This document shows, in pieces, positions 26,075 to 51,080 of a stretch of 64,000 bases of DNA. A program made the position numbers and the translations under genes. Source of the DNA: Hydrolagus affinis (lineage: Eukaryota). The stretch lies in assembly GCA_012026655.1 (NCBI GenBank), contig JAAILG010000198.1, forward strand, positions 1-64,000, read 5' to 3'. The notes beneath the pieces were generated by a model. The model was not told where the DNA came from and did not search any database. It was given only the letters and a program-made list of their open reading frames with translations. Numbering within the stretch: the first letter of the stretch is position 1; every line of letters starts with the position of its first letter.

Positions 26075-26725
26075 TAAGTGATGGCTGCTGAGAGGAGGCG
26101 GGTGCTACCATTATAATACAGCGGCTGATTGCACAATTCTCTCGACAAATTTCTTAGCTCAGTGCAGATTCAGGCTGTGGACCCTGTTTGCGAATCATAC
26201 AGATGGTGAAGGAATGGTAGCAGAAGTCTGCCTTTGTTTGCAGACTATCACAGACTCCTCATCAATGATGCTTCTGATTTTTACTGGCTTTGTAAAGCGC
26301 AAACTGAAATTATTGTCCCGTGCAAAAGCAATGCATCTTCATCAGGCAAATATTTCCCAATGCACTACAGTATGGTGTTACACCGTACCCTTTAATGTAT
26401 GCATTTGATCTGTTTGATGAATTGCAAATTATTAATGCACTTGCAATGACAAAAATGCCCTGTGCTGTGCGCGCGAGTAACAATATATGTTTGGTTATGA
26501 CAGATGATCTAGAATCTATGACACCAAAGGTTTCTCTCTGAGCAAACAGTAATGAATAGGAACATGGCATGTCACATTTTTACTCTATTCAGCATTTTGT
26601 GGTTATTCATAGCAAAAGTAATCCCATTTTATTAAACTCTTAATTATTTATATTTGTGCTCTCGCAGATTTATTAAAACATTAAATAATAATTTGTAAAC
26701 CCTGCGCGGCTAAACCTATAAGGCA
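26075..26725. promoter_or_regulatory. Candidate long conserved non-coding element
   Basis: About 650 bp repeat-free, with retained CpGs, TGATGAATTGCAAATTATTAATGCA (POU/homeobox-like) and CCTTTGTT (Sox-like). Conservation not tested. Confidence 0.35.
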
Positions 26726-27954: not shown

Positions 27955-28274
27955 GTGGAGCTCAGTGGTTAGAGCACTCGCCTCACAAGCGAGAGACCTG
28001 GGTTGAATTCCAGGCAAGTCAGGGAGAAACCGCGGGCATGTTAATCCTCACTCCACATGCCTGATAATAATCCCTCAAAAAATATTGGTAATTTTCAATC
28101 CACAACTGTTTGTGGGAAACTGCTGTGCGCTATTGGCAGCCACATTTTGCCCACAAATATACAGGCAATTAATTTACTTTACAGTAAATTCTGTGAAATG
28201 CTTTTGCGCAGCTGGAAGACGTGAAAAGCGCTGAATCAAATGCAAGGATTATTATTATTGCGTTATTATTATTA
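27955..28274 (+). mobile_element. Full-length tRNA-derived SINE (SINE2-1_CM-like)
   Basis: Head GTGGAGCTCAGTGGTTAGAGC (A box) and GGGTTGAATTCC (B box), body TGTTTGTGGGAAACTGCTGTGCG, tail AAATGCAAGG(ATT)n. Confidence 0.95.
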
Positions 28275-40277: not shown

Positions 40278-40372
40278 AAAGACTTATATATAAGTATATA
40301 AATTTCTAAAATACATAATTTCTAAGTAATTATAAACGATAGAGATTGTTATCATTGTGCTAGGAAGCATAC

Positions 40373-40689
40373 AATAATAATAATCCTTGCATTTGATATA
40401 GAGTCTTACCGGATCTTCCAGACGTCTCAAAGCGCATCACAGAATATACTGTAAAGTGAATTGACTGTATATTTTGGGTGAAATGCAGCAGCCAATTGCG
40501 CACAGCAGTGTCCCACAAATAGTTATGGATTCAAATGACCGATTTTATTATTGTTTTTTTTTAGGGATTATTATCAGGCATGTGGAGTAAGGAAACTTGC
40601 CCAAGGTTTCGCCCTAACCTGCCGAGAATTGAATCCAGGTCTCACGCTTATAATGCAAATGCTCTAACCACTGAGCCACAGGACTCCAC
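40373..40689 (-). mobile_element. Full-length tRNA-derived SINE (SINE2-1_CM-like)
   Basis: The reverse complement starts GTGGAGTCCTGTGGCTCAGTGGTTAGAGC...GGATTCAATTC and ends AAATGCAAGGATTATTATTATT. Confidence 0.96.
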
Positions 40690-43928: not shown

Positions 43929-44260
43929 AACAGCAACAACAACAAACAACAAAATTACATTTATAGAGCGTCTTTCACGTTGGGAGGACATCCCAAGGCA
44001 TTAATTGAACATGCTGACAAATCAAACGGGATTTTGCAACAAAAAAGAATTCAGCCAGTTTACCCTCAAGACCGTTCTTTTGAACTGTGCCTTCAGTCTC
44101 CCTCCTCTCCTCTCTGCCCTCCCTCATCCTAACCCTGCCTGCCCCCACCACCCCCATGATTGGATCCTGACCCCTGACTGTTCAGCTCCTTGGGACATCC
44201 TCCCAACATGAAAGGCGCTCTATAAATGTAATTTTACCTGGTTGGTTGTTGTCGTTGTTT
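43929..44260. mobile_element. MITE-like inverted pair of L2-like tails around a ~190 bp spacer
   Basis: Arms AAAATTACATTTATAGAGCGTCTTTCACGTTGGGAGGACATCCCAAGG and CCTTGGGACATCCTCCCAACATGAAAGGCGCTCTATAAATGTAATTTT are complementary at 44 of 48 positions. ACAGCA lies at both outer ends. Confidence 0.88.
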
Positions 44261-44410: not shown

Positions 44411-45564
44411 AAGCAATTCAGCTTGCTGGCTTGGCTTTCTCTTGCGTGTGAGCAATGCGATTTTGACAGACAACAAGAAAGTTTGCACCTTCATATTGCA
44501 TGTGCCAGAGCCAGTGAGATGATTAACAGCAAGTAGGCGCTTGTTTCAAATGCAATTATTGATTTTTCCTGGCAGTCCAGTGATCACATGTCCGTCCATC
44601 TACCTACATTCCGTCAAAAATAAATGCCCATCTTTTCTGTGGTAACGTCATTGGTCAATTACTGCCTATAGCCCAACAGCTATCTTTGCAGTAACCTTAT
44701 TTTTTGACATGTTTTCTACAGGGAATTAACCCTCAAAAGTGCTACTGGCAAGATAGCTTGTTTTCAGTCGTGCTCAACTTCCTGCACTGCTGACAAGTTT
44801 TCTCATTGGGCAGTCAGATCGCAGGACATCAGCCCGAAAACCATGCCACAGTTTGACTGCGTAGCTCCAGTGACATGGTGAAGTCAAAGCAAAATGCTCA
44901 AGGAACCGTTTGGATTTAAAATGCAGAGAAGAAAAGAAGAAAAGACAAAATAGGGAAGGAGAGAGAACAGTACACAAAAAAAAGGCTGTGCAAAGTGTAA
45001 TTTTACTTAAAGTTACTTGAAACTGTACATGTTCCAATAATAAAGATGCTCTCAACATCTCTGGTTTAGGGCTTTTTTCAGCATCAAACATATATTTTTA
45101 AACTGAAAACAACAAACTCCACTGATCTGCTATGGGTTAAAAGGGATGTGGTTGCCTTGGTGCACAATGAGTAAAACTCCAAATAAACAACTGGGAGAGC
45201 GGCACCTGAGCGAGACATGTCTGTGTGCTGGCTGTGGCCTTACAGGCAAATTTGAAATGCGGTCGATATCTTCAACTGTTACATAAGAGCTAAGTAAGTC
45301 TATTGGAATGATCGGGGTTCATATCATTTAAGAGGAATGCAAATGTTGCAGATTTTTAGATCATGTAAGAAGTGATACCTGCTTCTCACCCCAGAATGTG
45401 CACAGTCCTATAATTTGAACAAGGCGAACTACTGAGACCTATGGCATATGTTTTCCAGTTAAAATGAGTGTTGGATAATAAGCAGGTATTACTAAAATGG
45501 GCAAAAAGGTTCTATCAAGCCTCTCTATCAGCTGGTTCCTGGAATCCACCCTGTTTACTTTTAT

Positions 45565-45812
45565 TTAAAAAAAACACAAAATAGTACAGATGCTGGGAAT
45601 TTGAAACACAAACAGAAGCTGCTGGGGAAACTCAGCAGGTCAGGCAGCATCCATGGAGAAAGGAAAGCGAGTCAACGTTTTGGGTCCATGATCCTTTGTC
45701 AAAACTCAAACTATCCTCTGACAAAGGGTCGTGGACCCGAAACGTTGACTCGCTTTCCTTTCTCCATGGATACTGTGTGACCTGCTGAATTTCCCCCCAG
45801 CAACTTCTGTTT
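45565..45812. mobile_element. Palindromic Penelope-like (pLTR-derived) insertion with hammerhead-like motif and 14-bp TSD
   Basis: Inverted arms of about 93 bp (45610-45702 and 45718-45812). CTGTTTACTTTTAT is duplicated at 45551-45564 and 45813-45826. The right arm contains CTGACAA-A-GGGTC-GTG-GACCC-GAAACGTT. Confidence 0.85.
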
Positions 45813-46007
45813 CTGTTTACTTTTATGATGCATCAAGCAAACACCAATGATGACACTGAAACACTGAAGCCGTGTGAACTCATTTCTGAGCAGTTGTTTC
45901 TAAATCAGGATCCATAACTTTTGACCCTGGTTCAGGGGAAGATTCCAGATTAGGTGGCTTCAATAGTTCACCGTCTGTTTTTACACACAACAGAAAACAA
46001 TATTACA

Positions 46008-47145: not shown

Positions 47146-47318
47146 TAATAATAACCCTTGCATTGGATCTAACATTTTCACATCAAGACATTTCAAAGCA
47201 CTTCACAGAATATACTGTAAAGTCAATTGATTGTATATTTGTGGGTGAAACGTGGCAGCCAATTGTACAAAGCAGTGTCCCACAAAGTCATGGATTTAAA
47301 TAACCAATTTATTATTGG
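47146..47318 (-). mobile_element. SINE 3' part
   Basis: TAATAATAACCCTTGCATTGGAT...CAAAGCACTTCACAGAATATACTGTAAAG...GCAGCCAATTG...GTCCCACAAA. Confidence 0.92.
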
Positions 47319-50740: not shown

Positions 50741-51019
50741 CCAGGCCGGTCAGGGCGAAACCTTGGGCAAATTTCCTTACTCCACAGGCCTAATAATAAT
50801 CTCTCTAAAAAAAACACAATAATAAAATTGGTCATTTCAATCCACGACTGTTTGTGGGACACTGCTGTGCACAATTGGCTGCTGCATTTTGCCCACAAAT
50901 ATACATATACACAAATATAGGCGCAAATATATATGGCACTTTACAGTGTGTTCTGTGTAGCACTTTGAGACGTTTAGAAGACGTGAAAAGCACTATATCA
51001 AATGCAAGGATTATTATTA
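50741..51019 (+). mobile_element. 5'-truncated SINE nested in an antisense SINE tail, TSD TTGAT
   Basis: CCAGGCCGGTCAGGGCGAAACCTTGGGC...AAATGCAAGG(ATT)n. The flanks TAATAATCTTTATATTTGAT and TTGATATAGTGCCTT rejoin into a reverse tail. Confidence 0.92.
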
Positions 51020-51080
51020 TTGATATAGTGCCTTGCAAACTGGCTGCCATGCGTCTCCCACAAAATACATTTCATTTAGG

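Follow-up and report, generated by a model that had tools for sequence, protein, structure and literature searches.

The closest described counterpart of the insert reported here is Pen2a_Av, a Penelope-like element (PLE) of Adineta vaga. According to the available text of PMC3846280 and of the overview PMC8557442, it also has a head-to-head inverted pseudo-LTR (pLTR), a one-sided tail of ~35 nt and a variable target duplication, together with an Inr-like motif near the pLTR start and a parent that encodes a reverse transcriptase (RT) plus a C-terminal GIY-YIG nuclease. The same portions of both sources call the origin of inverted pseudo-LTRs and one-sided tails unresolved. For the Poseidon element of anole, the available part of PMC11167929 reports that both strands were cut and extended in vitro, that the tail lies between two RT start sites and that uncleaved RNA was the substrate. 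As far as that text goes, neither start site had a strand preference, coupling between the two was not shown, and the later steps of integration were left open. Minimal hammerhead ribozymes of metazoan PLEs are described in PMC4209133, whose available text also mentions nearby pairs of hammerheads on opposite strands.

We compared these systems with an insert at positions 45551-45826 of the window, by which we mean the whole 64,000-nt stretch of DNA analysed. The insert is likely a dead, ordinary stub that holds only the 5' end of an abundant, endonuclease-bearing Penelope-like retroelement. Sequence comparison within the window found exact 14-bp direct repeats at 45551-45564 and 45813-45826, as the first-pass annotation had reported, and we read the AT-rich left copy and the right copy as the two halves of a target-site duplication. 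Alignment to the solo copy L063, on which all unit positions are numbered, placed a whole pseudo-LTR unit in the left arm (45568-45707, minus strand, unit 1-140), read outwards from the centre, and unit 5-104 with a 2-nt insertion in the right arm (45717-45818, plus strand). Three extra bases outside the aligned unit (45565-45567) separate the left duplication from its arm. A 9-nt junction filler (45708-45716), unmatched by the fillers of other copies examined, lies between the arms and takes the place of the 5' strand of hammerhead helix I, which the right arm lacks. The insert is asymmetric: unit 106-140 forms a ~35-nt tail (45568-45602, minus strand) on the left arm only, without a mirror partner, a feature that the first reading had overlooked. 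In ORF-bearing copies this tail runs into the body of the element. We refer to the outer end of the left arm as long and to that of the right arm as short. The right duplication shares its first 6 nt (45813-45818) with the short end of the element, which blurs that boundary by 6 nt.

The inverted arms pair through one block of 78 nt (45624-45701 with 45719-45796, 91% complementary) and a second block of 24 nt (45604-45627 with 45795-45818, 92% complementary). They total about 100 nt with a 2-nt indel, around a loop of 16-17 nt; the earlier figures of ~93 bp and ~15 nt came close. The two arms differ at 10 sites. The predicted RNA fold of the ~200-nt hairpin reached -165.6 kcal/mol with a z-score of -20.6, and 0 of 200 shuffles folded equally well. 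No further copy of the insert was found within the 64-kb window.

No host gene was detected near the insert when 36 of the 41 window ORFs of at least 95 aa were scanned with Pfam, a scan that short exons would escape. A weak match to Na_Pi_cotrans at 26082-26405 (plus strand, E 0.0097) lay well under the cut-off and is probably due to chance. No empty site appeared among the joints listed from four DNA runs, in which no piece spanned the whole insert. Just upstream of the insert lies a 21-nt inverted repeat (45371-45391 and 45473-45493, 81%, 81 nt apart), and a 70-nt inverted pair at 43929-43998 and 44188-44259 (85% identity) belongs to another repeat family. An abundant dispersed repeat of ~290 bp occurs at 40362-40643, 1168-1448, 27960-28260, 50744-51037, 47146-47317 and further positions in the window, with 72-83% identity between the longest copies. 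Its end resembles the head of a tRNA-derived SINE, and ARAGORN found no tRNA gene.

The pseudo-LTR unit is ~140 nt long, with the 5' strand of hammerhead helix I at its start. A search of the 1.11-Gb genome with the whole insert gave 4,733 first-look candidates, and the best of the 40 that were scored had 83-88% identity. The hammerhead core pattern had 2,798 exact matches in the genome and a 32-mer from the downstream part of the unit had 3,353, each with 0 in the control; both counts are of arms rather than inserts and are lower bounds. The copies are old, at about 4% non-CpG divergence. Three of them (L087, L148 and L156) have ~40 nt of downstream flank in common at nearly the same offset, and this flank resembles the abundant repeat of the window, possibly marking an insertion hot spot inside another repeat. 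Right at the short end, unit ~65-109 (window 45599-45643, minus strand) holds a motif resembling a branch point, a tract of pyrimidines and a CAG. Together these motifs look like a 3' splice site, and in L189 the tail beyond is in frame with the start region of the ORF. PLEs are known to hold introns.

Judged by the context of its copies, the unit represents a pseudo-LTR, belonging to an EN+ Penelope-like element, because L189 carries it at both ends and because 20 of the 30 loci retrieved with the 5' part of the body have it immediately ahead of the body. L189 is a near-full copy of 3.15 kb between short direct repeats, in the order unit 62-140, ORF, 3' region and unit 2-139, with the two units as direct repeats and the 5' unit continuous with the body. 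Another 30 loci were found with the 3' part of the ORF, and in 22 of them the unit lay ~0.8-1.0 kb beyond the coding stretch. Several of 80 loci retrieved with the core pattern, namely the first 80 in a list of 100 out of 2,798 matches, have common sequence upstream of the unit, and partial unit tandems occur in L212 and L216. As in EN+ PLEs, whose nuclease bears a CCHH motif, a single ORF combines an RT with a C-terminal GIY-YIG nuclease, and the inserts show a 30-40 bp tail at one end, an inverted 5'-truncated copy and a variable duplication. The Penelope origin proposed in the first-pass annotation is supported by this arrangement, in which the unit flanks the RT and GIY-YIG ORF as direct repeats.

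The ORFs of L174 and L165 matched Pfam RVT_1 at E 1.5e-6 and 28.6 bits, just under the cut-off of 29.6, and a CX4CxxC linker and a VVY-CxxC-YIG nuclease motif are visible in both. Pfam gave no direct GIY-YIG match for the parent ORFs. L189 aligned at 49% to residues 259-800 of the PF01541-bearing P0013, and the L165 ORF matched a GIY-YIG-positive ORF of the same genome at E 7e-22. In the available text of PMC8557442, a CX2-5CxxC linker between RT and nuclease marks Neptune and Nematis. The linker of L174 and L165 has this form, and by this motif the parent is of Neptune or Nematis type and not Penelope or Poseidon. Among named proteins, those closest to the parent ORF come from sharks and rays (58-64% identity), which makes a cartilaginous fish the likely host, and no named reference PLE protein was among the 120 matches listed.

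A Pfam GIY-YIG search of the genome also found a second PLE family (L031-L050). It was rejected as the parent at 25% protein identity and with the unit unmatched in 20 of 20 loci. Its members, for example L047, are succeeded by hexamers of telomere-like sequence and by CA repeats, and the stretch read held no convincing hammerhead. Among loci of the family studied here, six (L193, L197, L200, L206, L217 and L220) have body fragments of ~80-675 nt that lead directly into the unit from position 1-2, as if the RT had hit the 5' end of the RNA and then jumped elsewhere in the body. Upstream of the unit start, the body-bearing copies L194, L196, L198 and L202 have one non-element sequence in common, which may reflect a derived master, flank capture or duplication.

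By its core boxes, the family carries a predicted minimal type I hammerhead with CUGANGA, GAAA, an NUH cleavage site and helices I and II. The site reads GUU, and the motif has an extra base before helix II, a 5-bp helix II, a 4-bp helix I and a palindromic insert of 2 nt. A helix I of 5 bp, beginning with G, was rejected, since 27 of 39 copies have C as the base before AGTT, which leaves 4 bp. The intact CTGANGA/GAAA core that had been suggested as a check on the family was recovered in the exact core matches counted above, and a hand count of the first 100 matches listed gave G8 in 83. The helices were predicted to form in all 3 other copies folded. Double changes in helix II kept Watson-Crick pairs in 15 of 25 cases, gave wobble pairs in 4 and broke pairing in 6; some rows are duplicates, and the support is modest. 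The Rfam hammerhead models, also suggested as a check, gave no match at E<=10 for the window insert and none for four other loci, three of them with the core motif. The hammerhead assignment draws on the core boxes and helices rather than on any Rfam model.

In the right arm, positions 45718-45749 read as the first-pass annotation had given them, and the hammerhead remnant (45718-45751, plus strand) keeps an intact 5-bp helix II and the GAAA box. Its predicted cut lies between 45746 and 45747 (plus strand), placed by descriptor features in the available text of PMC4209133. The motif had been claimed for both arms, but the left arm holds a decayed version (45669-45707, minus strand) that keeps the helix I 5' strand and has C3U, G8A (45697), G12A (45681) and two changes in helix II. 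G12 is a catalytic residue of the hammerhead. Neither core fits an intact minimal type I hammerhead: the right has a C3/A8 mismatch from G8A at 45723 and no helix I, and the left has a U3-A8 pair, a variant named in the available text of PMC4209133, together with G12A and disrupted pairing in helix II. In the anole element, cleavage is lost when C3 or G8 alone is changed, according to the portion of PMC11167929 available. The ribozyme of the window copy is probably inactive, as had been proposed, given the mutations in both of its cores.

G8 sits in a CpG, and of the first 100 core matches listed 15 carried G8A and 19 the neutral change at this CpG. In 40 other inserts G8A was unassociated between the arms (28/5/5/2, Fisher p=0.58), 29 of the 41 other inserts compared having been chosen for likeness to the window copy. 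The earlier suggestion that G8A predated the inversion or was homogenised was rejected on this result and on the 10 arm differences. Its presence in both arms fits two independent CpG changes.

We pooled 135 inserts, made up of 77 of the 80 core-pattern loci and 58 of 70 loci picked by the downstream 32-mer, as first-listed matches on the longest contigs. Three core-pattern loci were dropped for internal indels and twelve 32-mer loci as repeats of the same insert. The 3' ends of the arms fell into two classes at about 101-107 (short) and about 136-140 (long), with the class limits set after both peaks were seen. Two arms were present in 63 inserts and one arm in 72. Both ends could be classified in 57 of the 63 two-armed inserts and not in the other 6; 56 of the 57 joined a long end to a short end, one was short+short and none was long+long (binomial p 4e-16 against 0.5). 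One-armed inserts ended long in 39 cases, short in 31 and elsewhere in 2. The same opposite-end pairing was observed in the ORF-bearing inserts L163, L168, L179 and L183. Duplications of at least 11 bp flank 45 of the 56 long+short inserts, compared with 1.2% of shuffled flank pairs, which upholds the target duplication claimed for this locus; they measure 11-18 bp, most commonly 14 as here, and are 70% AT. The architecture of the insert is already known in print. Strict coupling of one long with one short end was not found stated in the portions of open-access main text searched.

The gap between the arms ranged from 0 to 116 nt across two-armed inserts, and the 12 inserts with both arms complete have 12 different fillers. 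In 28 of the 56 long+short inserts, the start of the long arm lies more than 10 nt further in than that of the short arm, and 8 long arms consist of the tail only, beside a complete short arm. Because the long arm starts inside the short arm and yet holds the tail that the short arm lacks, neither arm of these 28 inserts can have been copied from the other. The 5' boundary was reached by 42 of 58 short arms versus 21 of 52 long arms (p=0.001). Long arms ended near the short site in slight excess (7 of 17, p=0.018), a weak signal with its interval chosen post hoc. Subfamily sites were common to both arms of one insert (p 2e-8 and 8e-7). Rare variants were common to both arms in 9 cases, against a shuffled mean of 1.0 and maximum of 5; 103 were unshared, and some of the 9 look like subfamily markers. 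These agreements point to one source for both arms of an insert, whether one RNA or two RNAs from that source.

Arms picked by the downstream 32-mer, which is blind to the core, started at unit 1-7 in 45 of 66 cases, and the 5' units of the body-bearing copies L194, L196, L197, L198, L200 and L202 start at 2-6. We take the sequence at the unit start to fit the initiator consensus, and we infer that unit positions 1-7 correspond to the transcript start. An Inr-like motif has been noted in a pLTR in the available text of PMC3846280. Around the predicted cut (unit 33-37), 3 of 119 arm starts were found, versus about 3.4 expected from the 36 starts over 8-60. With no excess of ends at the cut site, cleaved RNA was rejected as the template. 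This background level of starts at 33-37 is in line with the uncleaved-RNA substrate in the available text of PMC11167929.

We propose, with a probability of about 0.75, that twin priming from a staggered cut at two RT start sites made the stub at this site. Both strands of the cut would prime reverse transcription on the element RNA, one at unit ~140 and the other at ~105. Each cDNA would run towards the 5' end of the RNA (unit 1-7); the two ends would then be repaired into a head-to-head joint holding a short filler, and the 14-bp duplication would be left behind. What the genomic copies show is the parent element, the existence of two end classes that pair almost strictly, the duplications, centres that vary and a common 5' boundary. 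Cutting and extension of both strands, with the tail between two RT start sites, are carried over from the in vitro results on anole Poseidon, a different clade. The two starts would have been coupled in one event, probably on one RNA; the template would have been uncleaved RNA; and decay of the ribozyme would have come after insertion. Given that 72 of the 135 inserts are one-armed, the second priming would often leave no trace.

The head-to-head geometry and the variants common to both arms are also explained by fold-back or self-priming, in which the first strand copies itself, or an antisense RNA primes itself as proposed in the available text of PMC3846280, and a nuclease trims the tail of the second arm. 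Such a process is formally compatible with 20 of the 56 long+short inserts, 8 with a shorter short arm and 12 with both arms complete, which is the type of the window copy. We nevertheless consider it unlikely, since 28 of the 56 have unique sequence in each arm, 8 of them as a tail alone beside a complete short arm, and since the one-armed inserts end at both sites (39 and 31), showing that a short end needs no long arm. The 12 inserts with both arms complete would be simpler to derive from two RNAs, each held by one protomer of an asymmetric dimer, with priming at the two sites; the anole protein is predicted to dimerise in the available part of PMC11167929. Subfamily and rare variants common to the arms of one insert speak against separate templates, as do long arms that are cut short more often, which is expected when two starts compete for one template. 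To this origin we give the same low weight as to fold-back.

The first-pass annotation had viewed the insert as a non-autonomous palindromic cassette, SINE-like or MITE-like, copied as a unit. Another 29 near-full palindromes were indeed recovered at 83-88% identity, but these were selected by likeness to the window copy, and all their centres differ. If a cassette moved as a palindrome, its variation would have to include fillers and arm lengths that vary per copy (every arm length occurs in the unbiased samples), 72 one-armed inserts among 135, the same pairing on ORF-bearing inserts and a unit that is continuous with an RT-nuclease ORF. Its variable duplications of 11-18 bp are unlike a DNA-transposon footprint, and we regard this view as very improbable. 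A MITE or other DNA-transposon derivative was rejected on the asymmetric arms, the 11-18 bp duplications and interiors that differ per copy. Least probable of all, and scarcely credible, is a hairpin RNA or working ribozyme selected by the host at this locus. The very stable predicted hairpin would suit such a role, miRNA-precursor models match it below their cut-offs, and the right junction is covered, over 45742-45912, by a contig of run X1, which comes from a related organism. Set against these points are 10 arm differences without compensation, the breakage of both cores, a frequency of G8A about the same as that of the neutral neighbouring CpG change and the lack of a detected host gene nearby. 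A miRNA precursor was likewise rejected, the Rfam matches below cut-off reflecting the hairpin only.

Twin priming may also be cast in a stronger form, in which PLEs integrate by obligate asymmetric twin priming on one RNA, each nicked strand taking one RT start site; we judge the odds for this version to be even. The inner start would run first to the 5' end of the transcript, and the outer start would follow by displacement. If true, this version would account for the inverted pseudo-LTR, for the tail on one side only and for the abundance of ~140-nt stubs. It would also carry the in vitro finding from anole over to the Neptune/Nematis clade, where the hammerhead would stay uncleaved while the element integrates. 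The thousands of short, readable inserts yield a sharp and testable rule on PLE integration, namely long + short in 56 of 57. They also present an annotation hazard, since such stubs resemble MITEs or miRNA hairpins.

Set beside the known systems, the present insert differs from Pen2a_Av as described in the available text in that it consists of two pLTR arms only. The tail is optional or often one-sided in the portions of PMC3846280 and PMC8557442 available, and one-sided in 56 of 57 inserts in the present family; PMC3846280, to the same extent, favours self-priming, which half of the present inserts do not fit. The family hammerhead resembles the metazoan PLE minimal type I hammerheads of PMC4209133, as far as its text is available, in the core boxes, the extra nucleotide before helix II, the G-C first pair, a helix I of 4-5 bp and the 2-nt palindromic insert at helix III. 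It differs in that both motifs of the window copy are mutated and in that the family hammerhead is known here from sequence. Non-LTR retrozymes (bioRxiv 10.64898/2026.07.22.740005, available text) are likewise short hammerhead-bearing PLE derivatives in vertebrates. In contrast to their head-to-tail tandem arrays, the present insert is a stub of the dispersed, head-to-head kind, and its ends do not fall at the cut site. A retrozyme was rejected for the sampled inserts, which are one-armed or head-to-head, with a few short tandems that have jumps into the body. With the anole Poseidon element (PAc, PMC11167929, available text), the present family has in common two classes of 3' ends separated by the length of the tail, targets rich in AT (70% here), extension of both strands and an uncleaved RNA template, these last two as parts of the mechanism proposed here. 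Unlike anole Poseidon, the present parent has the CX2-5CxxC linker of the Neptune/Nematis type, and its start sites lie in U-rich rather than AC-rich tracts.
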